A stretch of DNA of 58,080 nucleotides. Source: an uncultured virus (IMG/VR IMGVR_UViG_3300042894_007211). Taxonomy: Duplodnaviria; Heunggongvirae; Uroviricota; Caudoviricetes. Made by a program: the position numbers and the translations under genes. This document shows, one piece after another, positions 11,281 through 54,006 of the stretch. The DNA is taken from the IMG/VR virus record IMGVR_UViG_3300042894_007211; one strand, written 5' to 3'. Every line of letters starts with the position of its first letter. Position 1 is the stretch's first letter. The notes under the pieces are model-generated. The model saw only the letters and a program-made list of their open reading frames with translations. It had not been told where the DNA came from and searched no databases.

Positions 11281-11499
11281 TTATAATCCCAATTCCTTTA
11301 ACTTAATCTCTCTAATCTCTTCTTTACTTAAAGCTACATCAAACCAAATCTCACCATTTAACTCCTGACGTTGCTTTAAATAACACCTCTTACATACCCT
11401 TACATTTAAAGTAATGTGATTTCCAGAACCCAATTTTCCAATATCAATCTTCTCAGTATAGAACTTCCAGTTATGTCTTATCTTACATAATATTTTCAT
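11281..11499 (-). CDS. Small C-tagged protein with Cys/His motif
   Basis: Likely start MKILCKIRH (ATGA overlap); ends IREIKLKELGL. Confidence 0.7.
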   Translation of the reverse strand: MKILCKIRHNWKFYTEKIDIGKLGSGNHITLNVRVCKRCYLKQRQELNGEIWFDVALSKEEIREIKLKELGL

Positions 11500-11783
11500 A
11501 GTATCAAATTTAATTTCATATCTCTTTCTATCTGAATAGTGATATCCCTCAAATAACCTTTGGTAATACATCCAGCAATTGACCATCTGGAACTTGCTGT
11601 CTTAGTCCAATCTAAAGTAAAGATAGCATCATACTCAGAATTATGAATGACTACTTTTGCTCCCGTTGAGTACATATTAATAGGGATAATATCTCCTATC
11701 TTAAACGGATGATGGTAATTGACATCAGTATCTATGTCTATACTTAAATTATCTTTGAGGACTTCTAAATAATAACGTGTCAT
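11496..11783 (-). CDS. Small C-tagged protein
   Basis: Ends IERDMKLNLIL. Confidence 0.7.
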   Translation of the reverse strand: MTRYYLEVLKDNLSIDIDTDVNYHHPFKIGDIIPINMYSTGAKVVIHNSEYDAIFTLDWTKTASSRWSIAGCITKGYLRDITIQIERDMKLNLIL

Positions 11784-21270: not shown

Positions 21271-21323
21271 AAAAAGTGTAACTTTCCTTGACTTTTGGCG
21301 TTTATATAGTATATTTATATCAT

Positions 21324-22166
21324 ATGAGAGCACTTAAAATAACCCAATCAATCACTACAAAAGAAACTGAATCATTTAACAAATATCTACGCGATGTTAG
21401 TGGTTTAGATATGATAAACTCCCAAACAGAAATCGAACTGGCTAAACAGATAAAAGCTGGTGATATTAAGGCACAAGATGAATTAGTAAAGGCTAATCTA
21501 CGTTTTGTTATATCAGTAGCAAAACAATATGTAGGTCGTGGTTTAGATATTGAAGACTTAGTATCAGAAGGTAACTTAGGTTTAATTAAAGCCGCACAAA
21601 AGTTTGATGAAACCAGAGGTATTAAATTTATCTCTTTTGCTGTATGGTGGATACGTCAATCTATTCTACAATCATTAGCTGATAATTCTCGACAAGTAAG
21701 ACTTCCCTTAAATCAAATAAACGCCTTAAATAAAATTAAATCAGCTGAAAATGATTTAGAGCAACAACTACAAAGAAAAGCTACTGCATCTGAACTATCT
21801 GAATACTTAGGCGTTACAGAAGATAAGGTTAATCTTTCTATTACCAGTAGTCAAAAGATATCTTCTATGGATACACCTATTGGTGATGATAGTGATTTTA
21901 CTTTAGCAGATACATTTCAATCTTCGGACTTTGCGGATACCGAAATTATACAATCTGATATTTTGCAAAAGATAAATACGGCCCTTAATAGCTTAACTGA
22001 AAGAGAAAGATTTATTATTATCAATCTATTTGGTATTGGAGTTAATGAAATGACTTTGGTAGAGATTTCAAATAAGTTAGACTTAACATCAGAAAGAGTT
22101 AGACAGATAAAAAATACGGCTATTAAGAAATTATCGAAGAGTGGTGTACTTTCTAGTTTAGTTTAA
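21324..22166 (+). CDS. rpoD: RNA polymerase sigma-70 factor, Bacteroidetes primary-sigma type
   Basis: MRALKITQSIT; ANLRFVISVAKQY; KFISFAVWWIRQSI; LTSERVRQIK; no region 1.1. Confidence 0.92.
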   Translation: MRALKITQSITTKETESFNKYLRDVSGLDMINSQTEIELAKQIKAGDIKAQDELVKANLRFVISVAKQYVGRGLDIEDLVSEGNLGLIKAAQKFDETRGIKFISFAVWWIRQSILQSLADNSRQVRLPLNQINALNKIKSAENDLEQQLQRKATASELSEYLGVTEDKVNLSITSSQKISSMDTPIGDDSDFTLADTFQSSDFADTEIIQSDILQKINTALNSLTERERFIIINLFGIGVNEMTLVEISNKLDLTSERVRQIKNTAIKKLSKSGVLSSLV

Positions 22167-28324: not shown

Positions 28325-28678
28325 ATGGAAACTTTAGATAAAGATTGGTGTTATTATTCTGGTATGCCGTCACCTAATGCCTACAAACTATCACTAAGAG
28401 ATTGTTTTAATGAAGACTTTACTGAGTGGTTAGAAAATAGTAATTATATCGGTGATATAAACCCTGATGCTGAATATGGGGTATTAAAAGATATATTAGA
28501 TATCTTACTTATTCACCCAGAAGCTGATTACTTTTGGTATGGATATCCAGAGCATGGTGGTGGGTTATCTTATTCATTACCTCATCACGATACAGTTCCA
28601 GGTGGTGCCTTAAGAGTAGATAAAGATAAAATAAAAGTTTTCTTAAGAGATATAAAATTAGATAATATATTAAATTAA
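28325..28678 (+). CDS. C-tagged hypothetical protein
   Basis: Ends FLRDIKLDNILN. Confidence 0.7.
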   Translation: METLDKDWCYYSGMPSPNAYKLSLRDCFNEDFTEWLENSNYIGDINPDAEYGVLKDILDILLIHPEADYFWYGYPEHGGGLSYSLPHHDTVPGGALRVDKDKIKVFLRDIKLDNILN

Positions 28679-31148: not shown

Positions 31149-31842
31149 TAAACTTTTAACAGGGCTTTTTTTAATACTATTAATCTTTGGAGCAAAATCT
31201 CAATCAAATAAAAAACTTTATGAGTTATCTATGATTAACTCTCATAGACCTGATAGTTCTAAAATCTATTACGATTTAGTTGAAATTAATCATCTTAACA
31301 CTAATCTTATCAGAAAGACTATTAATTCAGAAGAATATATCTTAGTGTGTACTTGGAAACAAAATGTCAGTTTCTATCAAAAAGATACTATTTTTAATAC
31401 CGGGAGTTATAACATATGGGTCACAACGGCTCCTGAACTAAAGAAAAGAATTAAATTTGAATCTCCTAAAGATACTAACTTAAGACTACTTCAGTTACTT
31501 GGTCTACCACCAACATCTAAATACTCTTACTTTGTTGAGTTTTGGGTAAGACCTCAGGATCTTTTTAGACCGTGTCCGGATAGAGAAATTTGGGATGGTA
31601 ATTGTGACCTTTGTTTTCCACAAGGCACACCACAGGATCACATTAATTGGATAAATGAAAATCGAATTTCAAGATACTATCAATGTGACCTTTACAATCA
31701 ATATCCGTGGGGTCAATTAGGATACACTTGGGATTGGAATCCAGATAACAAATCACATGTTGGTTTAAGTGAGTTTATTATTACAACTGGCGCAACTATT
31801 TACGTCAATAAGATAGTGACTACATCTGAGTATTTAAAGTAG
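31141..31842 (+). CDS. Secreted hypothetical protein
   Basis: Signal peptide; LLGLPP, LFRPC, YPWGQLGYTWDW. Confidence 0.7.
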   Translation: MNNKLLTGLFLILLIFGAKSQSNKKLYELSMINSHRPDSSKIYYDLVEINHLNTNLIRKTINSEEYILVCTWKQNVSFYQKDTIFNTGSYNIWVTTAPELKKRIKFESPKDTNLRLLQLLGLPPTSKYSYFVEFWVRPQDLFRPCPDREIWDGNCDLCFPQGTPQDHINWINENRISRYYQCDLYNQYPWGQLGYTWDWNPDNKSHVGLSEFIITTGATIYVNKIVTTSEYLK

Positions 31843-32292
31843 TTGATTTAATTTAATTTCTCTTTTCCATTCTTTTAGGTCATACTTAGTTCTATCCATA
31901 TTATAACCTGTCATAAAATTATCATGATGAAAATGATGGTGCATATTATGGATTAAAGATTCAATCTCTTTATCAATTTCTTCTTCAGTTTCTTCTCCAG
32001 TAAATCCTCTGAAGATATTATAAGTAATTGGTCTATCTCCATTTTGATGTATTTGATCCCCACAACTCAATTCAATTTTCCATAGATGACCACATTCCCA
32101 ATACCTACTATCCATAGAGCGGGTAAGAAAGAAAAGACCTTCGGCATCTCTTTCACTAGAATGAAAAAAAATATATAATCCACCCCATCCAGATTTAATC
32201 TTAGTAAATGAATTTGACAGATTATTGCCTGTTACTTCAATACCTGGAAGTGCTTCTATTGTTTCGGTAAGTTGTTTATATAAGTCTTTCAT
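31834..32292 (-). CDS. C-tagged hypothetical protein
   Basis: Ends WKREIKLNQLL. Confidence 0.75.
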   Translation of the reverse strand: MKDLYKQLTETIEALPGIEVTGNNLSNSFTKIKSGWGGLYIFFHSSERDAEGLFFLTRSMDSRYWECGHLWKIELSCGDQIHQNGDRPITYNIFRGFTGEETEEEIDKEIESLIHNMHHHFHHDNFMTGYNMDRTKYDLKEWKREIKLNQLL

Positions 32293-32579
32293 ATTCCTAA
32301 TTCTTTTAGTTTCTCTTCTCTTTCGAGTTGTGTTTTAAATGGTTCTAGTAATCCAAAGTCATTTTCTTCCCAATTATATGACGATTCATCCATTTGTGGA
32401 TTAATAGAAAGAACTTGTAATTCATAACACATCAAATTAAAGAAATGGTCAACATCTGCTTGTCTTAAATTAAAGTGTTCTACAAAATCACTACCAGGTA
32501 AATGTGGTGGAATATATCCAGGTCTTGAATTCTTTCTAAATAACTGTATACAATCTTCTACTAAATAAGTTTCACTCAT
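32289..32579 (-). CDS. C-tagged hypothetical protein
   Basis: Ends LEREEKLKELGI. Confidence 0.75.
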   Translation of the reverse strand: MSETYLVEDCIQLFRKNSRPGYIPPHLPGSDFVEHFNLRQADVDHFFNLMCYELQVLSINPQMDESSYNWEENDFGLLEPFKTQLEREEKLKELGI

Positions 32580-32806
32580 ATTCCTAGTTCTTTTAATTTC
32601 AATTCTCTCAAAGATTGTTTATGTAATTCTAACTTACCCTCAGGTACCCAATGATTTATTAAATCCAATTCATCATTCTTTATTAGATACCACGTCTGAC
32701 CTCGTTGAGAAAGCCCAGGTTTTAAATTTTGTTCATCGTATTTTATTACTATACCATGATGATGAGAGCCAATCTCTTGTAAATGGTCACCTATATTAAA
32801 TTTCAT
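32576..32806 (-). CDS. C-tagged SH3-like small protein
   Basis: MKFNIGD...; ends LRELKLKELGI. Confidence 0.75.
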   Translation of the reverse strand: MKFNIGDHLQEIGSHHHGIVIKYDEQNLKPGLSQRGQTWYLIKNDELDLINHWVPEGKLELHKQSLRELKLKELGI

Positions 32807-33003
32807 ATTCCTAAATCATTTAATTTTTTATCTCTTATTTCACTAACTACATCAAAATTCCAATAGCAAAAAAGAGTATTGAACCCTTTGAGTTTATAAT
32901 AAAACTGATTATCAACACATTCAATATCTTCTACAAAGTAAGTCTTGTCAATGCTAAGAAGACCACCTCTCTCGGTGGTATTATCTTTACAAACAACAAG
33001 CAT
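32803..33003 (-). CDS. C-tagged small protein
   Basis: Ends IRDKKLNDLGI. Confidence 0.75.
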   Translation of the reverse strand: MLVVCKDNTTERGGLLSIDKTYFVEDIECVDNQFYYKLKGFNTLFCYWNFDVVSEIRDKKLNDLGI

Positions 33004-34863: not shown

Positions 34864-35085
34864 TCATATTCCTAATTTTTGTAGTCTTTGTTCTCTTAAA
34901 TTACTTACCATATCAACTTCGTCTAAATTAACCCAAGTCATACAATCTTCAGCATTCTTTATGTGATAACGAGTTTTTCTGTGTTTGTTACTATACTTTT
35001 GTACTTCTGTGATCACACAATTTCCCTTAATGAATTCATTAAGAAAGTGTTCTGGTTTTAATTTAACTATATCTCCTACTCTCAT
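34864..35085 (-). CDS. C-tagged SH3/KOW-like small protein
   Basis: MRVGDIVKL; ends LREQRLQKLGI. Confidence 0.75.
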   Translation of the reverse strand: MRVGDIVKLKPEHFLNEFIKGNCVITEVQKYSNKHRKTRYHIKNAEDCMTWVNLDEVDMVSNLREQRLQKLGI

Positions 35086-37120: not shown

Positions 37121-37399
37121 ATGACACCAAATGAAATAATAAAAATTTGTCCTGGTATTGAAAAAATAACATTGGATGCTTATGGTGAATTTTTAGGCAA
37201 TGATTTCAATCCAAATAAAACTTGGAAAGAAATGGGACTAGATGATTTAGATGTTATCGAAATGATAATGAAACTCGAGAAAAAGTATGACTTTGAATTT
37301 CCAGATTATTTAATAGATGAGGTATTTGGTGAAAATATGAAACCAATCAACTTTATTAGTGTAGTAAGACAAAATAAATTAAACGACTTAGGAATTTAA
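37121..37399 (+). CDS. Acyl-carrier-protein-like protein, Ser-to-Asp, with C-terminal tag
   Basis: EMGLDDLDVIEMIMKLEKKYDFEFPD; ends VRQNKLNDLGI. Confidence 0.75.
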   Translation: MTPNEIIKICPGIEKITLDAYGEFLGNDFNPNKTWKEMGLDDLDVIEMIMKLEKKYDFEFPDYLIDEVFGENMKPINFISVVRQNKLNDLGI

Positions 37400-37966: not shown

Positions 37967-39238
37967 TTAACCACCACCAAGCATTTTTTTACTTCGTCTT
38001 TTTCTATGAAAATCCAATGAAAACCGGTGCACTTCATTTAGAATATGTGCAAACTCCGTATATCCTTTAATAGAGATGTCGGATCCGTTTGATAAATGGA
38101 TTAAATTTGCTTGATGTTTTTCGGATTTAGAAATTGAAATGACATCTAACTTATCAAAGATATGTAGAGATTTAAGCACAGATATAGCAACATTCAATTG
38201 AGGTCTTGCTCCATCTATGATAATCAAATTTGGAAGGTTAGTCTTTTCTTCAATAAGTCTTTTAAATCGTCTGATAAGTACCTCATCAAAACTTCTATAG
38301 TCATCACCACCGGCACCTGATTTAATGATAAACTTTCTCCATTGTGATTTATCGGCTTCTAATAAGGTATAACGAACCATTCCACATACTGCTTCAGTAC
38401 CAGCGGTGTGTGAGTTATCGAAAGCATCAATGACAGTTGGTAGATACTTTAAACCTAAAGACTTTTGAATAGATTCCACTCTATGTCTTTTATCAATTGT
38501 AATTATTGGCTTTAATAAATTTTTAATCTTTTCAATAACTAAGATTTTGATTTTGTATTTTTGAGCCAATTCATATTCTAAAACACTCGCATGATAAGTC
38601 ATTTTTCTTTTAAAATATTTTATTGATGTATTAAAGTTAAAATTAAAAATATCTTTAATTAATTTAATAGTATGTAAATAGTCAATTTTTTTTGCCAATC
38701 CAATACATGGAGCGGAACATCTATCCATATGCCATTCTAAACAGGCTTTAAATTTACCGCGTTCTACATTCTCATCAGTAATTTGATAAGAGCAACTTCT
38801 TAGTTTAAAGATATCATAGATTGAGTCATAAACTTCTTTTGCGACTTTTCCGGAAGTAAATTCACAAATAACTTCTCCTTCAAATTCTTCTTGTGGATAA
38901 AATAATTCTAATTTTTTCCACTCATCACCAGTTAATACTAACTTACTTCTGATAGTTTTACTATCTTTTCCTTTTATGTTAAATTTTGGTTTGTAAAGTT
39001 TGATAAGATCCTCTTCTAATACTAAAGCTTCATTTTCACTTTCAGTGGAAATAAAATCAACATTTTTAATTTCAGTAACCAACTTAGAGGTTTTAACATC
39101 TTTATGATTTTTTTGAAAATAACTGCTCACTCTCTTGGGTAGATATTTTGATTTACCAACATAGATGATTTGGTCTTTACCATCTTTGAAAAGGTAACAA
39201 CCTGCAGTTTGTGGAATAGAAAAATCCTTTATATTCAT
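37967..39238 (-). CDS. uvrC: Excinuclease ABC subunit C (short form lacking HhH)
   Basis: GIY-YIG (GCYLF..IIYVGKS), Cys cluster, UVR, RNase H-like (FDNSH, DD, IIDG, EVHRF). Confidence 0.9.
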   Translation of the reverse strand: MNIKDFSIPQTAGCYLFKDGKDQIIYVGKSKYLPKRVSSYFQKNHKDVKTSKLVTEIKNVDFISTESENEALVLEEDLIKLYKPKFNIKGKDSKTIRSKLVLTGDEWKKLELFYPQEEFEGEVICEFTSGKVAKEVYDSIYDIFKLRSCSYQITDENVERGKFKACLEWHMDRCSAPCIGLAKKIDYLHTIKLIKDIFNFNFNTSIKYFKRKMTYHASVLEYELAQKYKIKILVIEKIKNLLKPIITIDKRHRVESIQKSLGLKYLPTVIDAFDNSHTAGTEAVCGMVRYTLLEADKSQWRKFIIKSGAGGDDYRSFDEVLIRRFKRLIEEKTNLPNLIIIDGARPQLNVAISVLKSLHIFDKLDVISISKSEKHQANLIHLSNGSDISIKGYTEFAHILNEVHRFSLDFHRKRRSKKMLGGG

Positions 39239-40149: not shown

Positions 40150-41568
40150 ATGAAAATTATAAATTTTTTATCTTTGGTATTTGGTCTAATCATTTTTACA
40201 TCTTGTGAAGAAAGTGGTCCAGAAAATCAAAGGTTTATAAGAAAAGAAATTCATTCACCAGAGGCATTAGAAGATGTTAAGGCAATGAATAAAGCCTTAG
40301 AAATAATGAAGTCAAAAGGATGTCAGGATCCACTTAGTTGGTATTATCAGGGCGCAATTCACTGGGTCCCGGATTCAATTCCAAACAACCAATTTTGTGA
40401 TAGCTACCACACTTTCGTAGATAGTAAATTGGCTTGGAGAAATTGTACACATTCAAAATCTAAGGAAGAAGAAATACATTTTTTAGTTTGGCACAGAATG
40501 TATATTTGGCATTTTGAAAAGATTGTAAGAAAGTTGTCAGGTAAAAAAGATTTTGCTCTTCCATACTGGGACTATACTTCAGGTGATAAGTCAAAGATGT
40601 CACTGCATCCGCTTTTTAGAAATAATAAATCTTATTTATATGAAGACTGTAGATTTGATTCAATCAATAAAGGTTATCCAATTGAAGGTGAGGTAGAAAG
40701 AGCACTTGATATTACAAAATTGATGACCTATACTAGTTATGAGTTATTTAATAAAAATATGGATAGAGCACCACACGGAACAATTCATGATTACATTGGT
40801 CATGGAAATGATTATAATGATGGAAAACTGTGGTTTGATAATCCAATCACTGGAAAAAAATCACACGATGGTTTAATGGGTTGGGTACCAACTGCTGGTT
40901 TCGATCCAATCTTTTGGACACACCATTCAAACATTGATAGAATTTGGCAAAAATGGACTAATTCAGATAATGGTCAAATGATTACATTAGAATTATTAAA
41001 GTCAGTCGAGTGGCCTTACATCTTTTTTGATGAGAATGGCAAAGAAGTAAGGTATACACCAGAACAAATTTACAAGATACTTTATAGTATGGACTATGAT
41101 TATGATGATGCTAAAGTTGAGCCTAAATTAAATCAAATGCCTGTTAAGTTTTCAAATAAACAATTAATCAGTCAATTAAATCCTAAGACTTTATTAAGTG
41201 GTCAAAATACTAAAATTAATTTAGAAAATACTTTAGATGTAAAATCTAAGAGTGTTGTTATTGAAATTGAAGCTTCTTATAAAGAGGTACCATCTGGAGT
41301 TTACGAAGTTTATTTAAACACTAAACAAAGAAAAACAGGATCTAAAAACTTTGTTGGATTTATGACATTCTTTGGTGAAGATCACAAATCACCAGGCAAA
41401 TCTTGTAAAAATGGATGTTGTCAGGCGGTGACAACTGATGGTAGAACAAAGATGAAATTTGTTTTTCAACATAGTTTAGAAAAGAATTGGCAATTTCATT
41501 TTTACAATCACAATGGTTATTCAACAGGTGATTTACGAATAGATAAAATTACAATTAGAAAAAATTAA
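40150..41568 (+). CDS. Tyrosinase/polyphenol oxidase (type-3 copper), lipoprotein
   Basis: FTSC lipobox; CuA IHW..CTH..WHR; LPYWD; CuB PHGTIH..FDPIFWTHH. Confidence 0.9.
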   Translation: MKIINFLSLVFGLIIFTSCEESGPENQRFIRKEIHSPEALEDVKAMNKALEIMKSKGCQDPLSWYYQGAIHWVPDSIPNNQFCDSYHTFVDSKLAWRNCTHSKSKEEEIHFLVWHRMYIWHFEKIVRKLSGKKDFALPYWDYTSGDKSKMSLHPLFRNNKSYLYEDCRFDSINKGYPIEGEVERALDITKLMTYTSYELFNKNMDRAPHGTIHDYIGHGNDYNDGKLWFDNPITGKKSHDGLMGWVPTAGFDPIFWTHHSNIDRIWQKWTNSDNGQMITLELLKSVEWPYIFFDENGKEVRYTPEQIYKILYSMDYDYDDAKVEPKLNQMPVKFSNKQLISQLNPKTLLSGQNTKINLENTLDVKSKSVVIEIEASYKEVPSGVYEVYLNTKQRKTGSKNFVGFMTFFGEDHKSPGKSCKNGCCQAVTTDGRTKMKFVFQHSLEKNWQFHFYNHNGYSTGDLRIDKITIRKN

Positions 41569-41615: not shown

Positions 41616-41834
41616 TTAATCGAGCAACTTTCTTAATTTATCGTCTCTTAAGTCTTTTATAATTATATCTTTTGGTAGTCTATATGATGATCTTTTTCCA
41701 GTAGTATGAAGATAGTAAATTTTCAAGTGGTCACCATCATCTATAAAACCATTATAAGACCATTCTTCAGGAATAGAGCCTTTTGATTTCATAAAATGAA
41801 AATACCTCTCGACGTTTTCTTTGTTGAAAATCAC
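41616..41834 (-). CDS. C-tagged small protein
   Basis: Ends LRDDKLRKLLD. Confidence 0.7.
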   Translation of the reverse strand: MIFNKENVERYFHFMKSKGSIPEEWSYNGFIDDGDHLKIYYLHTTGKRSSYRLPKDIIIKDLRDDKLRKLLD

Positions 41835-44230: not shown

Positions 44231-44659
44231 TTAATCTAAAATCTGATTGATTTTTTCTTCTCGATAACTTGATGTATCCACATCTACTTCGACTACCTCA
44301 TAAAAAGAAACAGTTACCATTTTATAATATTCATTTACTTCATCTTCATTTGCTGATGGATGTAATCTGTTTTCAGTAGATTCCCAGGTGTAGTTTTTCT
44401 TAACTTCACCATACTTTTTAATAAGTGAGTTGTTAAACTCCTCAAATACATCCCACTCGACATTTACACAGTTTTCATATTCATATGCAAAATCAGTAAT
44501 TGAACTTTCTTTATAAGCTTTAATATTTAGTTCTTTCACTTTTTCTTCTGCATCTTTCTTTGAGAAGCAAACAATTTTTGGAGTTCCGCCTTCGGTTTCG
44601 TTATAAATACTATCATCATATTCATAACCTTTTTTCATTACAATATAAGCTTTATTCAT
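44231..44659 (-). CDS. C-tagged hypothetical protein
   Basis: Ends YREEKINQILD. Confidence 0.75.
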   Translation of the reverse strand: MNKAYIVMKKGYEYDDSIYNETEGGTPKIVCFSKKDAEEKVKELNIKAYKESSITDFAYEYENCVNVEWDVFEEFNNSLIKKYGEVKKNYTWESTENRLHPSANEDEVNEYYKMVTVSFYEVVEVDVDTSSYREEKINQILD

Positions 44660-46451
44660 TTGTTTTATTTGTTAATTGATGTTTTACTAATTCTTTATAA
44701 TATTCACAATTTTCTAATAGATAATCATGAGTTCCTTCTGCTAACAATTCGCCTTGCTTAAGAACAAAAATCTTATCACAGTTTTTAACCGTTGAAAGAC
44801 GGTGTGCGATTATAATAGATGTCTTTTCTTTGGAAACGGCATCTATTGATTTTTGAACTACTCTTTCACTTACCGTGTCTAAAGCAGAAGTTGCTTCGTC
44901 AAAGATAAGTATTTCTGGGTTCTTAGCCAAAGCTCTCGCGATACCAATTCGTTGTTTTTCACCACCGGATACTTTAGCTCCACGTTCTCCAACAATGGTG
45001 TCCCAACCATGTTCCAGTTTTTTATAAAAGGCGTCAATACGAGCCATCTTTGATATCTTATTTAACTCTTCATCAGATAGAACCGTTTCGGTTCCATATG
45101 AAATATTATCACGAATACTTTTATCAAATAGATTTACTTCTTGATCCACACTTCCAATTTTCTTTAAGAATGATTTGAGTTCCAAGTCTCTTAAGTTATT
45201 ACCATTGATTAAAATTTCACCACATTGTGGATCAAATGCTCTTCTGACAAGGTTAGCAATTGTTGATTTACCAGAACCACTTTCACCAACAAAGGCAACT
45301 TTTTCACCTTCTTTAATTTTAAAGGATATACCTTTTAAGACCATTTCAGGTTGTAGTTCTTCTTCATCTTTATCATTATGATTTTTCTTTCTAACTGGAT
45401 AACTAAATTCAACATTTTTAAATTCTATATCTCCTGTGAGATTTTCAGAAATTGGATTTTCAATTTCTTCAACATCCGGTTTGATTTCAAGTAGTTCAAA
45501 ATATTTTTCAATGTTTATTTTATCGGTGATAAACTGTTTTTGCATATCAGTTATCATCCAAAGTGATATAATAAAATTTTGAGACCAAGTGAAAATAAGA
45601 AATATCGCACCGGCTGTAATATACCCATTAAATAATAACCAAACTGCAAATAGTATAGTTAAGTATCTAAAACCAGCAGTTCCTATTCTAATAAGTGTTA
45701 ATAAGTTATTACCTGGTATCCAAGTTCTTTGGAAAGCATCTTGATGAACGTCTTGAACATTGTCTAAATCACCTAATGATTTCTTTTCAGCTACTTCATT
45801 TTTAATTAAGAAAACAAAACGGTATAATTCAGAAATAGTTCTAGCTGTTTGGTTTCTAGCATCTCTTACTTCTCTTAATTTAGGTTGTAGATACTTGTTA
45901 AATTTATAAACCGACCATAAGAAAAGAATTGATATTCCTAAATATGAAAATCCAATAACGGAGCTTATGTAGAATAACATAACAATTGAAACAATAAAAT
46001 TGGCAATTGCTGGAAAAAGATGATAAACAAACATCTGAATTTGTCCTTGAACTGAAGTGAACCCAGCTGTTATAATATTTTGTTTAACACCAGAGTGTTC
46101 ATTTATATGTTGGCCATTTGAGAAATTAAAATACTTTGCTATTGAATAATGATTAAGATGATTAGACGCTTTAATATCTAAGTTTCTAATTTCAATATTT
46201 CCTTGAAATCGAATAATGAGTATTCGAATGAGAACTCCAATACCTGCAAATCCTGCAAACATTAAAGCAGTAGACATGTATTGAGGATCATTAGAATGCT
46301 TTTGTATAACATCAAAGATGTTACTTAAAAAGTAGGTACCAACTGCTTCGATAATTGAAGTAAGAAGTATACAAATAAAAATAATTCCGATTGTTTTTCT
46401 AAAGGGCTTAGCGAATTCCCAAATTCGTTTTATTAACGTCCAATTTGTCAT
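44652..46451 (-). CDS. ABC transporter, fused TMD-NBD (ABCB/MsbA-like)
   Basis: TM helices; GESGSGKS; VSGGEKQR; LIFDEATSALD; IAHRL. Confidence 0.93.
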   Translation of the reverse strand: MTNWTLIKRIWEFAKPFRKTIGIIFICILLTSIIEAVGTYFLSNIFDVIQKHSNDPQYMSTALMFAGFAGIGVLIRILIIRFQGNIEIRNLDIKASNHLNHYSIAKYFNFSNGQHINEHSGVKQNIITAGFTSVQGQIQMFVYHLFPAIANFIVSIVMLFYISSVIGFSYLGISILFLWSVYKFNKYLQPKLREVRDARNQTARTISELYRFVFLIKNEVAEKKSLGDLDNVQDVHQDAFQRTWIPGNNLLTLIRIGTAGFRYLTILFAVWLLFNGYITAGAIFLIFTWSQNFIISLWMITDMQKQFITDKINIEKYFELLEIKPDVEEIENPISENLTGDIEFKNVEFSYPVRKKNHNDKDEEELQPEMVLKGISFKIKEGEKVAFVGESGSGKSTIANLVRRAFDPQCGEILINGNNLRDLELKSFLKKIGSVDQEVNLFDKSIRDNISYGTETVLSDEELNKISKMARIDAFYKKLEHGWDTIVGERGAKVSGGEKQRIGIARALAKNPEILIFDEATSALDTVSERVVQKSIDAVSKEKTSIIIAHRLSTVKNCDKIFVLKQGELLAEGTHDYLLENCEYYKELVKHQLTNKTNE

Positions 46452-47371: not shown

Positions 47372-48097
47372 TTATTTAGTAAGTACTTCTCTGTTGTAGT
47401 AATCATCAAAACCTTCAAGCATTTTCTCCATAGAGCTATCACCGATAACCTCATCGATTAAACCAAACTGAAGTGCTTCATGTGAATTGAACCATTTATC
47501 TCTACGAGAAGACTCAATCATTTCCTCAAATGTTTTACCACAGTTTTGTGCTAAAATGTTAAATAAGATATAATTGTATTTGTGTCCTTCAATGTGTGAG
47601 ATTGTTGTGTCCTGAATGTTTCCTTGCATTCCGTGAGAAACTTGGTGTGTCATAACTCGTGAGTTAAGGAGCGAAGAACGCTTTCCTTTTGTTCCTGATG
47701 AAAGAAGAACAGAACCCATTGATGCTGCCATTCCTGTATTGATTGTTTGGATATCCGAATTGATATAGTTCATAACATCAATCATTGATAGTCCTGACTT
47801 AACTGATCCACCTGGACTGTCAATGTGCATTGTAATATCTCGTTTCTCAACTGAATCCAAATACATAAGTTGAGCTTGAACAACTGTTGACATTTGGTCA
47901 TTTACAACACCAGCCACCCAAAGAATTCTATCTCTCATTAATCGTGAGAAGATATCCATTTGTGTTACACGCATTTCTCTTTCTTCTAAGATGTAAGGTG
48001 TCATTGATGCTTCAATTTGTTCCCCATAGTAATTGAGGTTCATTGATGAAATTCCTTCGCTTAGTGCGAATTTTTTAAAATCTTTTCCGTAATCCAT
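47372..48097 (-). CDS. clpP: ATP-dependent Clp protease proteolytic subunit
   Basis: DIFSRLMRDRI, IDSPGGSV, AASMGS, MTHQ, EALQFGLID. Confidence 0.95.
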   Translation of the reverse strand: MDYGKDFKKFALSEGISSMNLNYYGEQIEASMTPYILEEREMRVTQMDIFSRLMRDRILWVAGVVNDQMSTVVQAQLMYLDSVEKRDITMHIDSPGGSVKSGLSMIDVMNYINSDIQTINTGMAASMGSVLLSSGTKGKRSSLLNSRVMTHQVSHGMQGNIQDTTISHIEGHKYNYILFNILAQNCGKTFEEMIESSRRDKWFNSHEALQFGLIDEVIGDSSMEKMLEGFDDYYNREVLTK

Positions 48098-48157: not shown

Positions 48158-48694
48158 TTATCTTGGAATTCCCCACATTTCATCTACTTCTATTCCAAAT
48201 TCAGAAAGTATATTTTCTAATTCAGCATGATTTACATCATTGTAATCAAGTATTAAGTGGTCATGAAAATCAACATTAAAATTAGCAGATACTCTTTGTT
48301 TTACTCCTGCTTCACTTTCATAAAAACAAAGATTAAAATTACCAGGCAATACAGAGTAGTGATGAACTTTACCCATATAAATCCAGTTTGTTTGGAAGTT
48401 TTTCTTTTCTGGATCTGGTTTACTATGAAACCAATCTGATTGAATATCACAATGAACCTCAACTCCAGGAAGCTCTGTATTAGAGGAACCCATTTTTCCA
48501 CCTAATCCAGTTGTATCAACTTTGTTTACAGTTTTAATAACAATGCCTTTATAAACCTGACTTATAGGAATTTGTTCAGTTGGTGGGGTAATTATACTTT
48601 TATCAAAAGCTTTTACAAGATCCATCATAGACTGATATCTTTCCGCTCTATTATCAGAAGTTATATTCTCATTAAATCTTTTTAGGTGTTTCAC
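48158..48694 (-). CDS. CTS-like protein
   Basis: MKHLKRFNE; TAATATATA at 48699-48707. Confidence 0.7.
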   Translation of the reverse strand: MKHLKRFNENITSDNRAERYQSMMDLVKAFDKSIITPPTEQIPISQVYKGIVIKTVNKVDTTGLGGKMGSSNTELPGVEVHCDIQSDWFHSKPDPEKKNFQTNWIYMGKVHHYSVLPGNFNLCFYESEAGVKQRVSANFNVDFHDHLILDYNDVNHAELENILSEFGIEVDEMWGIPR

Positions 48695-48732: not shown

Positions 48733-49071
48733 ATGAGAATTATATCAAATAGTAAGGGTGATTATGTTCAGGTGTTAGAGGAGTTCCTAGGAATAACCTT
48801 AACAACAGAAAATGAAGTTCGGTGGAGTGTTGTTCTTTATCACGGTGAGGTTATGATATTTCATGAGCCCTCAACTAAATTATATACTAAAGATGAATTC
48901 ATTGAGTATAAAGATAATTTAGGATTAGCTCAATGGCGAAGTTCTTCTCTTAAAAAAGATAGAATGAAACTTTTTGATGAGCTCTTAAAATCTCTTATTA
49001 AATTTGAGAGAGAATTAAAAATAGATAAAGTCTTAAGAGATGAAAATGAATATCAATATTGGCTATGTTAA
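48733..49071 (+). CDS. C-tagged hypothetical protein
   Basis: FERELKIDKVL near end; TATATTTG at 48718-48725. Confidence 0.7.
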   Translation: MRIISNSKGDYVQVLEEFLGITLTTENEVRWSVVLYHGEVMIFHEPSTKLYTKDEFIEYKDNLGLAQWRSSSLKKDRMKLFDELLKSLIKFERELKIDKVLRDENEYQYWLC

Positions 49072-49193
49072 ATAACGAATTGAAATACTTTTATGAAAAT
49101 TTGTTAAAGACATCTGGTGTTCCCTTAAAATACTTTGGTGTCAAAAACATTATTAGAATGAATAAAATAAAAAGAATATTTAATGAAAATTGA
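49065..49193 (+). CDS. 42-aa C-tagged microprotein (not in ORF track)
   Basis: MLNNELKYFYENLLKTSGVPLKYFGVKNIIRMNKIKRIFNEN. Confidence 0.55.
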   Translation: MLNNELKYFYENLLKTSGVPLKYFGVKNIIRMNKIKRIFNEN

Positions 49194-49719
49194 TTACAAC
49201 ATAAACAATACTCAGAAAATTAGTTTGGTCTTTTTAAGATGGTATCCAAATGAAAAGAATTTTGAGGAATTAACATCTGATGATTTTTTTTCAATTGATG
49301 ATATCACAGTTTCAGAAAGTGATGGAGTTATTTCCTATTCTCATGTTGAAGAGCGTCAGTTTTATAAAACTATGCCATCAAATTTATCAGAGGTAAATAA
49401 TAAATTCAATTTCATAGTTGAAATTACTTTTGAGAAAGTAAATTACTTTAAGTCAAAAATAGTTACTGGAAACAAAATGCAATCCATTAGACTTATGACT
49501 TATGAAATTTTATCAAAGTATAAAAAGAGTGAGGTCATTGGAGGAACAGATGCTTTAATGAAACTAAATCATCCTAACATAAATGTTGAAAAAACTCACA
49601 CTATGGAGATTAAACCAGTTAAGATTTTAGAGAAGGATTGTGTAGATGGAAAGTATGAATTGAATTTGCTTATTAAAGAGTTTTTAAGAGATAGTAAATT
49701 AGATGATTTAGGAATATGA
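49183..49719 (+). CDS. C-tagged hypothetical protein
   Basis: Ends FLRDSKLDDLGI. Confidence 0.75.
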   Translation: MKIDYNINNTQKISLVFLRWYPNEKNFEELTSDDFFSIDDITVSESDGVISYSHVEERQFYKTMPSNLSEVNNKFNFIVEITFEKVNYFKSKIVTGNKMQSIRLMTYEILSKYKKSEVIGGTDALMKLNHPNINVEKTHTMEIKPVKILEKDCVDGKYELNLLIKEFLRDSKLDDLGI

Positions 49720-50390
49720 AATTATTAAAACAATATATTGATAAGTTACCTAAAGACTTAAAGTTTGATACTTTTGAGTTTATAAAGAAAAATATACTCT
49801 ATCTTAATGAAGATTGTAAAAACGTTCTAATAGAAGATTTAATTAGAATTGATTTTAATAATCTTTATCCCAATATCATTTTAGGTCTTTATAATGAAGG
49901 TCTTATTGATACAAAGTGGGAAAGTGATATCAAACAACTAAAATCATTTTTAGAGAATGTTGATGAATTAAAAAGAACGACTAAAGAACTTATTGGAAAA
50001 CCTTATGATGATTTACAAGATTCTATTCTCAGTTCTTATAAGTCAGGAAGAATTCATGCTAATGGACTTTATGGTAAAATAAAATCACCATTAGTAGTTG
50101 AGTATTTACATCTAATTTATACTGACATAATTGAAAAGTATAAAGATGATATTGTTTATATTGATGTTGATATGATAATATGTAAAAAAGATATTGATAT
50201 TTCTAATATACCTGCGAAATCTGAAATGTCTAAATTAGAATACTTTTATATTGAAAATAAAAACAGATATATTCTTTTTTACAATGGTCAATTAGAAACA
50301 AAAGGTCATAGTAAATTTACTAATATGGATTTACTACAATTGGTCAAAAGTGAGATTAGAACTCGTAGATTAAATAAAATAGGAATATGA
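49716..50390 (+). CDS. Minimal family-B DNA polymerase-like palm/fingers protein with C-tag
   Basis: DFNNLYPNII (A), RIHANGLYG (B), YIDVD (C), NKNRY; ends IRTRRLNKIGI. Confidence 0.7.
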   Translation: MKLLKQYIDKLPKDLKFDTFEFIKKNILYLNEDCKNVLIEDLIRIDFNNLYPNIILGLYNEGLIDTKWESDIKQLKSFLENVDELKRTTKELIGKPYDDLQDSILSSYKSGRIHANGLYGKIKSPLVVEYLHLIYTDIIEKYKDDIVYIDVDMIICKKDIDISNIPAKSEMSKLEYFYIENKNRYILFYNGQLETKGHSKFTNMDLLQLVKSEIRTRRLNKIGI

Positions 50391-50692
50391 TTGAATTTTT
50401 TATAAAAGCTGAGTTAAAATACCATAAAGTAAGGTATAATTTACAATTTTCCGATGAAAAAACATCTGAAATAATTAAATACATCAAAGAAGGTGTTTAT
50501 GCTTTTCAACTTATTTATAATGAAAATCAACAAGTGATTTTAGTTAAACCTTTAGATTGGACTAAAGTTCGGTCAACTTTAGATTGTTGGTCTTATGATG
50601 GTGGAAAATATTTTGGCTATTCATCAATTGAAACCTTAAAATTAGATATACAAAAGATTAGAGAATTAAAATTAGATAGTATATTAACCTAA
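50387..50692 (+). CDS. C-tagged hypothetical protein
   Basis: Ends IRELKLDSILT. Confidence 0.7.
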   Translation: MIEFFIKAELKYHKVRYNLQFSDEKTSEIIKYIKEGVYAFQLIYNENQQVILVKPLDWTKVRSTLDCWSYDGGKYFGYSSIETLKLDIQKIRELKLDSILT

Positions 50693-51828: not shown

Positions 51829-52080
51829 ATGAAATTTGAATTAGTGATAGAAACAATTAAGAGTATTAAAAAAACTGCAATTGATAAACAGATGTATCAT
51901 TTAGCCGCAAATCTTAGAACAATTGAAAGAGAACTGGAATCTAAATATAAATCTGAAGACCAAGTTGAAGTTTCTCACTTCACGGTTTTACTACAAAGTT
52001 GTTTGATTAGACTTCCAGATGATCAGAGACTTCTTTTAACTCCAATTATTAGAGAGTTAAAATTAAGTCAGTTATTATAA
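51829..52080 (+). CDS. UVR (UvrB/UvrC, ClpC M-like) domain protein with C-tag
   Basis: KKTAIDKQMYHLAANLRTIEREL; ends IIRELKLSQLL. Confidence 0.65.
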   Translation: MKFELVIETIKSIKKTAIDKQMYHLAANLRTIERELESKYKSEDQVEVSHFTVLLQSCLIRLPDDQRLLLTPIIRELKLSQLL

Positions 52081-52102: not shown

Positions 52103-52708
52103 ATGATACCAACTGCATCAGATATAATACTTCATTCAGGACTTCACCCAAAACGCGTGCATAACATTTATGTCTTTGGAAGTCGTGTTTATAAAACCAA
52201 CTCAGATAATTCTGATTGGGATATCATAATGGTCGCAAACAATTCAGTAGAAGCAATTGAGTTGAAATTGGAAAAGTATAACATTCATATTTATACCCCG
52301 GATAAGTTTAAAGAAGATTTAGAGTGGCATCGTATAAACAACTTAGAATGTATTTATGCCCCCACTTGGGCTAAAATTCAAGAGAATATAAAATATGATT
52401 TAGATATAGACTTTCCTAAACTAAGACATGCAACTTCTCATATAAGTTCCAATAGTTGGGTCAAGTGTAAAAAGAAATTAGAAATTGGAGACTATTACAC
52501 TGGAATAAAATCTATTTTTCATTCACTTAGAATTCCGATGTTTGCAACTCAAGTTGCAACTAAAGGAACTATTTATGACTTCGAGGTGGCTAATCCGATT
52601 TGGGAAAAGTTAATAAGTAAAGAATGGACTTGGAAAGAGTTGGACAATGAGTTTAGAGAATTAAGAAATAGTATCCTAACTGAATTTAGAAAGGTGTGTG
52701 AGAAATGA
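52103..52708 (+). CDS. Pol-beta-family nucleotidyltransferase
   Basis: FGSRVY..SDWDI; TATATTTG at 52088-52095. Confidence 0.85.
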   Translation: MIPTASDIILHSGLHPKRVHNIYVFGSRVYKTNSDNSDWDIIMVANNSVEAIELKLEKYNIHIYTPDKFKEDLEWHRINNLECIYAPTWAKIQENIKYDLDIDFPKLRHATSHISSNSWVKCKKKLEIGDYYTGIKSIFHSLRIPMFATQVATKGTIYDFEVANPIWEKLISKEWTWKELDNEFRELRNSILTEFRKVCEK

Positions 52709-52839
52709 ATGAAAAGGAAGTAGAAAAGGCTGTTGAAAAGATGTATCAGAAGTTAAACCCTAAAAGAGGAGCTGCTAGTAGATACTTTAGAAACTATATA
52801 AGAAAAAGAAAAATTAAAAGAATATATGAAACTAAATAA
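52705..52839 (+). CDS. 44-aa tagged microprotein
   Basis: Ends IRKRKIKRIYETK; ATGA-coupled. Confidence 0.55.
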   Translation: MNEKEVEKAVEKMYQKLNPKRGAASRYFRNYIRKRKIKRIYETK

Positions 52840-52957
52840 CATTTCCGGTGGTGTTGATATGTATTATCAATCAACTTTAGTTTATGAGTTAGGTAAAAGA
52901 CTTTTAAGAAAGTCAAATAGAAAAGAAAAAATTAAAAAGTTATTTAATGAACATTAA
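52826..52957 (+). CDS. 43-aa tagged microprotein
   Basis: Ends NRKEKIKKLFNEH. Confidence 0.55.
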   Translation: MKLNNISGGVDMYYQSTLVYELGKRLLRKSNRKEKIKKLFNEH

Positions 52958-53078
52958 GAATTTTGACATAGTTTTAGAGATGCCAATAGGTTTAAATTCA
53001 TTTACACACTCAATGACTATATTTTCATCGAGAAAGAATTTAAGAAAAGAAAAAATTAAAAGAATATGGATGATGTAA
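52947..53078 (+). CDS. 43-aa tagged microprotein
   Basis: Ends LRKEKIKRIWMM. Confidence 0.55.
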   Translation: MNIKNFDIVLEMPIGLNSFTHSMTIFSSRKNLRKEKIKRIWMM

Positions 53079-53269
53079 TAAAAAAGATGTTAGACGAGAT
53101 TTATTTAGATAGAAAGTCTAAGAAATGCGCATTAACAACCGTTGATACATCTTTAGTTAATATGGATTTTGCATCTCTTTATCCTAATCAAATGAAGTGG
53201 TGGAATATAACTCCTGTTCCAGAAAAAGTGATTATAAGAAAAACAAGAATAAAAAGAATATTTCAATAA
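53066..53269 (+). CDS. 67-aa tagged protein carrying PolB motif A
   Basis: MDFASLYPNQMKWWNI; ends IRKTRIKRIFQ. Confidence 0.65.
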   Translation: MDDVIKKMLDEIYLDRKSKKCALTTVDTSLVNMDFASLYPNQMKWWNITPVPEKVIIRKTRIKRIFQ

Positions 53270-53655
53270 TGTATTGTATTTGTTGTAAGAAAAATAATGT
53301 GATTCCTGAGATACACTCTTATACTAAAGAAAGTATGAGAGGTGTGAAAGAGAAAGTTGAAGAAGAAGATATTCTTTGGAAAGATTCTAAAAGACCTGAT
53401 GGTAGTTTAGTTAATGTCAATAATGAAATGATTGACAATGGAATCATACACATAATTGATGCTGGTTATGGATCAACACACGATGGTGATCAATTTGTTA
53501 TTGCTATTTGTGATTATTGTATTAAAGAGAATTTAGAAGATGCAACACTTCTTTATTATGATAGCATGTTTGATCGAGAAGAATATGTTGAAGAAGAAAG
53601 GGAAAAATCTAAACAAAAATATAGAAGAAGAAAGAACTTAGATGGATTAGTCTAA
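53269..53655 (+). CDS. Zn-binding hypothetical protein (start MYCICC)
   Basis: CICC...CDYC; ends RRKNLDGLV. Confidence 0.7.
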   Translation: MYCICCKKNNVIPEIHSYTKESMRGVKEKVEEEDILWKDSKRPDGSLVNVNNEMIDNGIIHIIDAGYGSTHDGDQFVIAICDYCIKENLEDATLLYYDSMFDREEYVEEEREKSKQKYRRRKNLDGLV

Positions 53656-54006
53656 TAGATTATCCAATCTAAGCTCTCTTAAAATTCTAAGTCTATCTTC
53701 TTCTTCTGGAATAAACTTAATTGGATGAACATCTTTTCTATAGTTGCTACCAACATAGTCAACATCTAAATTCCATCCCCAAATATGTTCGATGTATCCG
53801 GTAATTTCAATTAAATTACCCCCTGTGTTTTTCCCAATCAAAATAGATTTTCCACGCATTCCAATTGGATACCATTTTTTAAGTAATTCTAATTGAAAAT
53901 CCTTATCAGTTCTATTCCAACGCATACAATCCAATGGAATTGTGTTTTGTTCAGAATTAAACCGATAAGGCCAGTAATTTAAGTATTTTTTACCGAAGGT
54001 GCTCAT
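53647..54006 (-). CDS. C-tagged hypothetical protein
   Basis: Ends LRELRLDNLLD. Confidence 0.75.
   Translation of the reverse strand: MSTFGKKYLNYWPYRFNSEQNTIPLDCMRWNRTDKDFQLELLKKWYPIGMRGKSILIGKNTGGNLIEITGYIEHIWGWNLDVDYVGSNYRKDVHPIKFIPEEEDRLRILRELRLDNLLD

Follow-up and report, generated by a model that had tools for sequence, protein, structure and literature searches.

What is a 224-amino-acid (aa) protein with the motifs of a family-B DNA polymerase (PolB) doing in a tailed phage? PolBs are the most common replicases, and to our knowledge every characterized member is a multi-domain protein of more than 550 residues, far larger than this one. The gene lies in a 58,080-nucleotide stretch of DNA from an uncultured member of the Caudoviricetes, IMG/VR record IMGVR_UViG_3300042894_007211; we call the whole stretch the window and the gene mini-PolB. 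A first-pass annotation, made from the letters alone, had proposed a palm-and-fingers polymerase ending in a short tag, and had seen in it a stripped nucleotidyltransferase, a dNTP binder or a polymerase decoy. We find that mini-PolB is very probably a true homolog of the PolB catalytic core, and that it belongs to a family of free-standing genes of conserved length, carried by huge phages in lake and other metagenomes. That it serves, in identity and inferred activity together, as an accessory minimal nucleotidyltransferase core of PolB palm and fingers is a proposal that we hold with middling confidence. The gene and its motifs are as follows.

49716..50390 (+): mini-PolB gene, 224 aa; predicted PolB palm and two-helix fingers, without N-terminal, exonuclease or thumb domains
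49851..49880 (+): motif A, DFNNLYPNII, residues 46-55; D46 at the metal-ligand position, Y51 at the sugar/steric-gate position
50049..50075 (+): motif B, RIHANGLYG, residues 112-120; on the second finger helix; KxxxNSxYG with K replaced by R and S by G
50157..50171 (+): motif C, YIDVD, residues 148-152; equivalent of YGDTDS, with D150 and D152
50259..50270 (+): KxRY motif, here KNRY, family consensus KKRY; NKNRY is residues 181-185 (50256-50270)
50301..50306 (+): KG motif, residues 196-197; palm/thumb boundary, aligning to the RG of archaeal tRGLEIVRRD
50352..50387 (+): C-terminal tag, EIRTRRLNKIGI, residues 213-224; end of helix 203-221

The open reading frame (ORF) is intact from an ATG start to a TGA stop and, as first described, is joined to both neighbors by ATGA overlaps. 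Its ATG overlaps the TGA of a 178-aa ORF (stop at 49717-49719), and its own stop at 50388-50390 is overlapped by the start of a 101-aa ORF at 50387. The sole ORF overlapping it on the opposite strand has 43 aa and lies at the gene's end. Motifs A, B, C, KxRY and KG stand in canonical order, at the places first proposed, and the tag follows the polymerase core as claimed. Only 45 residues precede motif A, so neither an exonuclease nor an N-terminal domain can fit; only 27 residues, a single helix, follow KG, so a thumb cannot fit either. The annotated lack of exonuclease and thumb is thus borne out. The fingers are shortened, with ~66 residues between motifs A and B.

Homology to PolBs was assessed with two profiles of the family, A1 (a 24-sequence mini-PolB alignment) and A2 (a 98-sequence alignment). 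The best match of A1 is to archaeal PolBs (E 4.2e-6) and is collinear, profile positions 38-59 falling on residues 394-415 and 66-208 on 463-627. PolBs make up 34 of its 39 matches at E<=10, including the entire top 15. A2 matches KOD polymerase best (E 4.4e-8), and all 39 of its matches at E<=1 are PolBs; they include phi29 (E 0.0049), Escherichia coli Pol II (0.052) and yeast Pol alpha (0.13), and RB69 gp43 is not among them. Hidden Markov model (HMM) alignment sets DFNNLYPNII on 'LDFRSLYPSIII' of KOD/9N (DFRSLYPSIII), and the profile alignments pair the KxRY motif with archaeal 'KKKY'. The A2 alignment also puts the N-terminus of mini-PolB on the YxGG segment ahead of motif A. Mini-PolB spans the YxGG-equivalent segment, motif A, fingers of two helices that bear motif B, then motifs C, KxRY and KG; it stops where the thumb would begin.

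An AlphaFold2 (AF2) model built from the A1 alignment (mean predicted local distance difference test score, pLDDT, 76.3; predicted template modelling score, pTM, 0.68) has the corresponding layout. A strand at motif A is followed by long antiparallel helices at 66-91 and 99-122, the second bearing motif B, then by the motif C hairpin (146-149, 153-157), three more strands and a terminal helix at 203-221. Foldseek against the PDB gave 72 matches at E<=0.001, with a PolB in every match listed. In VIA-align, where 49 of 50 rows are PolBs, the model scores Z 11.6 with Pol alpha and 11.1-11.2 with Tgo and KOD. Residues 380-646 of Tgo/KOD superpose on model residues 14-224 (~200 aligned, root-mean-square deviation 5.3), and the Tgo alignment stops at ~646 of 773 residues. 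RB69 gp43, the comparison called for beforehand by the first-pass annotation, matches at Z 9.1-9.4. Judged by the AF2 model and the Foldseek and VIA-align superpositions, mini-PolB is a palm plus fingers that ends at the first helix of the would-be thumb. It has the features of a PolB catalytic core (the motifs, and palm and fingers), yet fails those of PolB domain architecture. That annotation had named the absence of any PolB profile or structural match as the result that would sink its reading; matches of both kinds were found, and they are significant. In BFVD, weak fold matches were seen to small uncharacterized proteins of Aeromonas phage 65.2 (241 aa), phiAS4 (252 aa) and Klebsiella phage PMBT1 (291 aa). 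In the genome records that we take to be those of phage 65 and phiAS4, the family profile has no match at E<=10.

The mini-PolB family is widespread and under purifying selection. A word-indexed search returned 64 homologs at 37-100% identity, of which 62 are 209-227 aa long; the other two are a 240-aa protein and a 170-aa partial. An HMMER scan of 1.84 billion cluster representatives gave 202 matches at E<=0.001 and 103 at E<=1e-10. Among the 150 matches listed of those 202, none is a full-length PolB: 106 have 200-239 aa, 20 have 240-299 aa, one has 370 aa and 23 have fewer than 200 aa. Same-length homologs, another check proposed at the outset, are thus the rule, and the variable truncation that would have spoken for decay is not seen. 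No longer or fused form reached E<=0.001 among 7998 scored candidates of 420-2000 aa, which is weak evidence, and the 19 longest representatives (237-370 aa) carry no Pfam domain at E<=0.01. In bacterial and archaeal genomes there were 131 pattern matches, none of which was confirmed, and tblastn against 50,697 phage records found a single match, itself uncultured. Between the window and its metagenomic relatives the ratio of nonsynonymous to synonymous substitution rates (dN/dS, Nei-Gojobori) is 0.26-0.35, as computed on three distinct sequences only, loci L010 and L011 being identical.

Residue conservation was measured on 134 sequences (the window protein and 133 representatives of 190-300 aa, after 17 shorter or longer ones were dropped). 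The motif C aspartates are kept in 124 (D150) and 125 (D152, 93%) and are invariant in A1; distant members read YNDTDS or YIDTDS at this motif. Y51 is kept in 127 sequences, N116 in 118, G197 in 111, K183 in 109 and Y185 in 100, while position 112 is K or R in 107 and position 119 is Y or F in 122. The family consensus for motif B is K...NS.YG. With its fixed length, low dN/dS and retained D150 and D152, the gene is not a product of random decay, as the first-pass annotation had argued. The same annotation held that both catalytic aspartate positions are retained. This is true of the window protein; across the family it fails at motif A, where the D46 column is D in only 27 of the 134 sequences.

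How might such a protein work? In the reading that we favor, mini-PolB keeps the canonical nucleotide and metal pocket, formed by D46, D150, D152, R112, N116, Y119 and Y51. It would bind a metal-dNTP complex and add nucleotides to a 3'-OH end as an accessory, non-proofreading and necessarily distributive enzyme, for example in short fill-in or tailing. Lacking a thumb, it would have to be held on its substrate by a partner, which would deliver it to the 3' end, probably via the tag. In related phages the gene is an extra one, retained beside a separate replicative PolB of the T4 type, which is itself encoded in two pieces.

Several observations weigh against this proposal. Pfam and PHROGs scans of the single 224-aa sequence give no PolB match, and PF00136 finds none of the 24 A1 members at E<=1, so the kinship is visible only by profiles and fold. 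The window copy departs from the family in having R for the motif B lysine and N at column 183, the second lysine of KKRY (K in 109 of 134), and its YxGG-equivalent segment is degenerate in the 98-sequence profile alignment. The narrow basis of the dN/dS estimate counts here too. No thumb-replacing partner was identified among the flanking genes, no conserved linked partner emerged among the loci compared (L001, L002 and L009-L012), and the gp45 clamp families PF09116 and PF02916 have no match in the related viral records G001 or G002. A third related record, G003 (rated 91% complete), has the mini gene and no detectable PolB, though it may be incomplete. Finally, the motif A ligand varies: besides D in 27 sequences, the D46 column holds E in 47, S in 29, T in 9, N in 8 and Q in 4. 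With this acidic ligand so variable, many family members may skip the usual two-metal catalysis.

That variability keeps non-catalytic options such as a dNTP binder or decoy alive, and they make up the strongest alternative, one that we consider possible and clearly less probable than the enzyme. Here the PolB pocket would serve to bind a primer terminus or dNTPs, and the protein would be a regulator, sensor or decoy that synthesizes no DNA, directed for example against a host defence that is set off by the phage polymerase or recognizes it. In 50 of 134 sequences S, T, N or Q stands in place of the motif A aspartate, while Y51, N116, K/R112 and Y/F119 are conserved. Neither thumb, exonuclease nor DNA-binding partner was found in the protein, in the Pfam and PHROGs scans or in the comparison of neighbors, and the gene sits among arrays of small shuffled ORFs, as is typical of accessory genes. 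Yet the motif C aspartates are the most conserved residues of the core, motif A is acidic (D or E) in 74 of 134 sequences, and it is D in the window copy and in at least 90% of the closer set A1. This pattern of conserved acids is the one expected of a metal-dependent active site.

A separate replicative polymerase bears on the favored reading and on the next alternative; the evidence for it comes from related genomes rather than from the window phage's own. PF00136 detects separate PolB genes in two of the three related viral records (G001-G003). The N-terminal, gp43A-like piece has 512 aa and carries 'YDFASLYPTTQRQF' (motif A), and the C-terminal, gp43B-like piece has 478 or 402 aa with motifs B, C, KKKY, KG and the thumb. 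The two pieces make up a gp43 of the T4 type, divided within the fingers, to whose completeness the mini gene adds nothing; no N-terminal piece was detectable in G001, a record that may be incomplete. In G002 and in LR745206.1 both pieces lie far from the mini gene. In LR745206.1 (634,780 bases) they are at ~233 kb and ~131 kb, with the mini gene at 597 kb. The mini-PolB profile does not match the T4-like pieces even at E<=1000, as against 4e-8 for archaeal PolBs at equal database size, so the mini gene is not a recent copy of the phage's own polymerase. By these profile comparisons it is closer to archaeal-type PolBs than to the T4-like enzyme. We considered whether mini-PolB could be one complementary piece of a split gp43 and rejected the idea, given that the gp43A- and gp43B-like pieces are complete without it and show no profile match.

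Two side observations concern these polymerase genes. At ~76-77 kb of G002:C1 (L005/L008), the C-terminal piece has one in-frame TGA inside the PolB match, and the 402-aa open frame of G002 begins after motif B; the G001 piece is uninterrupted at 478 aa. The TGA could mark a further split, reflect a recoded codon or be an error. In the window, a 67-aa ORF at 53066..53269 is a second PolB-derived fragment, independent of mini-PolB, with a T4-like motif A (MDFASLYPNQM). It matches PF00136 (E 0.017), phrog_262 (E 0.003) and a related phage's gp43A-like piece (BLASTP E 2e-4), and it closes with the variant tail RIKRIFQ.

The genes on either side of mini-PolB raise the question of whether the polymerase is spread over several ORFs. 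They are as follows.

49183..49719 (+): upstream tagged ORF, 178 aa; ATGA-coupled; no Pfam or PHROGs match; not a conserved partner
50387..50692 (+): downstream tagged ORF, 101 aa; ATGA-coupled; no Pfam or PHROGs match; not a conserved partner

If mini-PolB were the middle piece of a multi-ORF split polymerase, these neighbors would supply the missing domains. The three ORFs are ATGA-coupled and share the same tag, and split PolBs occur in related phages and, according to the part of PMC13648687 covered here, in PhiKZ. We nevertheless regard this as very unlikely. Both neighbors lack a Pfam or PHROGs match, neither is long enough to encode a thumb or an exonuclease together with an N-terminal domain, and the split PolB of the relatives is already complete without the mini gene. 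The linkage is not kept either. In close relatives (loci L009-L012, 77-88% identity), four to five other small tagged ORFs separate the 178/183-aa ORF from mini-PolB, and in L009-L011 an 80-aa or 130-aa ORF intervenes between mini-PolB and the 101-aa ORF. The tagged ORFs upstream of the gene in L001 are not homologous to the 178-aa ORF of the window (E 11), the 101-aa ORF is absent beside mini-PolB in both L001 and L002, and in L002 mini-PolB is flanked by unrelated genes. A decaying polymerase remnant or chance resemblance, for which one could cite the silence of Pfam on the 224-aa protein and the clearly fragmentary motif A piece nearby at 53066..53269, is least probable of all and is refuted by the family data: 202 diverged representatives with shared length and motif order, motif C aspartates kept in 93% of 134 sequences, dN/dS of ~0.3, and significant profile and fold matches.

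The tag is the feature that links mini-PolB to other proteins of these phages. Its consensus, R-x-x-K-L-x-x-L-G-I, closes mini-PolB and is visible on most of the representatives listed. Of the 126 sequences that have a residue at the tag arginine, R215, 124 keep it, which puts it above any catalytic residue. The pattern [RK]xx[KR][LI]xx[LI][GLI] occurs 18 times in the 170 ORF translations of the window, 16 times within the last 14 residues, and 16 window ORFs share a tail R-x-x-K-L-x-x-L-(G/L)-(I/L/D). The tagged ORFs of the window lie at these positions.

First part: 11281-11586, 11496-11783, 28325-28678, 31834-33003, 34864-35085, 37121-37399
Second part: 41616-41792, 44231-44659, 49183-50692, 51829-52080, 53647-54006

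Among 1332 ORFs of G002 (483 kb), the pattern is C-terminal in 35 of 59 occurrences, and none of these 35 tagged proteins reaches a Pfam gathering score. The only clear family among tagged proteins of the window and its close relatives is that of the 92-aa ORF at 37121..37399, an acyl carrier protein (PP-binding, E 4.5e-6). The tag's DNA is repeated as well. The tag DNA with the ATGA junction at 49684-49721 is a dispersed repeat, and in all four metagenome runs examined several contigs match just ~38 bases of this interval and diverge on both sides. Gains and losses of small-ORF cassettes between the close relatives L009-L012 end at tag junctions, which suggests tag-mediated shuffling of cassettes at these points.

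The tag helix, which is strictly conserved and recurs on many small phage proteins unrelated to mini-PolB, is most likely a handle for a partner or for a common localization. Such a common tag points to an unrecognized sorting or assembly system in huge phages. We think it rather doubtful, though worth stating, that mini-PolB is an active polymerase of ~215-225 residues, by far the smallest family-B enzyme, and that the invariant tag is a docking code carried by dozens of unrelated small proteins. The tag would then bring its bearers, the acyl carrier protein included, to one hub, compartment or virion, and that hub would replace the missing thumb by tethering mini-PolB to DNA. Were all this true, palm plus two-helix fingers would be a sufficient catalytic unit.

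Set against known systems, mini-PolB is closest to the archaeal PolBs (KOD, 9N, Tgo and Pfu), which give the best profile and fold matches with motifs A, B, C, KKxY and (K/R)G collinear. Those enzymes have ~775 aa with N-terminal, 3'-5' exonuclease and thumb domains, whereas mini-PolB has a palm, short fingers and a tag helix. T4/RB69 gp43 and the split gp43A/gp43B belong to the same polymerase family and the same kind of phage, but the mini gene is an extra copy and neither of the pieces. In concept, the nearest systems are the split PolBs of T4-like and PhiKZ-like phages and a minimal split Pol III alpha core from the same group of jumbo phages. In its proposed mode of working, though not in its unrelated fold, mini-PolB resembles African swine fever virus Pol X. 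That 174-aa enzyme of a eukaryotic virus belongs to family X of the Pol beta superfamily, lacks the usual DNA-holding domains and carries out short, distributive repair synthesis.

Three further comparisons come from the literature, in each case from the portion of the source covered here. The jumbo phage PhiKZ assembles its PolB from separate polypeptides, DNAP-N and DNAP-C, with an extra subunit, Rhc, that holds duplex DNA (PMC13648687). As presented there, its pieces form a complete PolB with a thumb, whereas no complementing pieces were found for mini-PolB. Group 2.2 jumbo phages carry a minimal split DNA polymerase III alpha core (Iyer et al. 2021, PMC7824862), and this core is reported from T4-like jumbo phages, including Bacteroidetes-infecting ones. 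Like mini-PolB it is phage-specific and reduced to the catalytic core of a replicase of cellular type, and it coexists with a replicative polymerase of family B. It is of family C rather than B and has another fold, and a minimal PolB goes unmentioned in the sections covered. Archaeal PolB2 and the C-terminal half of Pol epsilon are degenerate family-B paralogs whose active-site motifs are altered and which have accessory roles (PMC8764526, PMC12926913). From what these sources give, they keep the full multi-domain architecture, whereas mini-PolB has lost domains and has motif C intact. We found no description of a ~215-aa PolB core or of the tag in the literature searched, which included portions of PMC7544198, PMC7824862 and PMC12926913. 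The 2020 PolB survey (PMC7544198), in the part covered, dropped sequences of fewer than 200 residues, a cut-off close to the mini-PolB family length.

With the mini-PolB family, nature has run an experiment on the minimal core of a PolB. Should the protein be active, it bears on how polymerases arose out of a simple palm and could serve in engineering as a very small scaffold; should it be inactive, it would represent a new class of nucleotide binders or decoys, derived from a polymerase and used in the conflict between phage and host.

The window looks like part of a huge tailed phage. Its G+C content is 27-37%, and its genes include a sigma-70 factor, a UvrC-like nuclease, ClpP, an ABC transporter, a tyrosinase, a sulfotransferase and virion structural PHROGs. 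DNA nearly identical to it is present in sequencing runs annotated as lake water or freshwater metagenome (at least 20 runs, 17 studies listed), two of which may be its source. One metatranscriptome run has contigs 90-95% alike over 49687-50134, although contigs from an RNA library are no proof of transcription. Some of the window's other genes can be placed as follows.

21288-22166: full sigma-70 factor
37967-39238: UvrC-like GIY-YIG nuclease
40150-41568: tyrosinase-domain protein
44652-46451: ABC transporter with membrane domain
47372-48097: ClpP
52103-52708: Pol-beta-superfamily nucleotidyltransferase

Two other recurrent termini were seen. Five mini-ORFs of 42-67 aa at 49065-49193 and 52705-53269, four of them in tandem, end in K-I-K-(R/K)-(I/L)-(F/Y/W); this array is absent or different in the close relative L011. 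At the other end, an N-terminal motif MK(Y/H)LK.(F/Y)(N/K)E is common to many otherwise different proteins of the window and of distant relatives (window 48158-48694, L001 12021-14093, L002 7336-9861 and L009 4007-5626).

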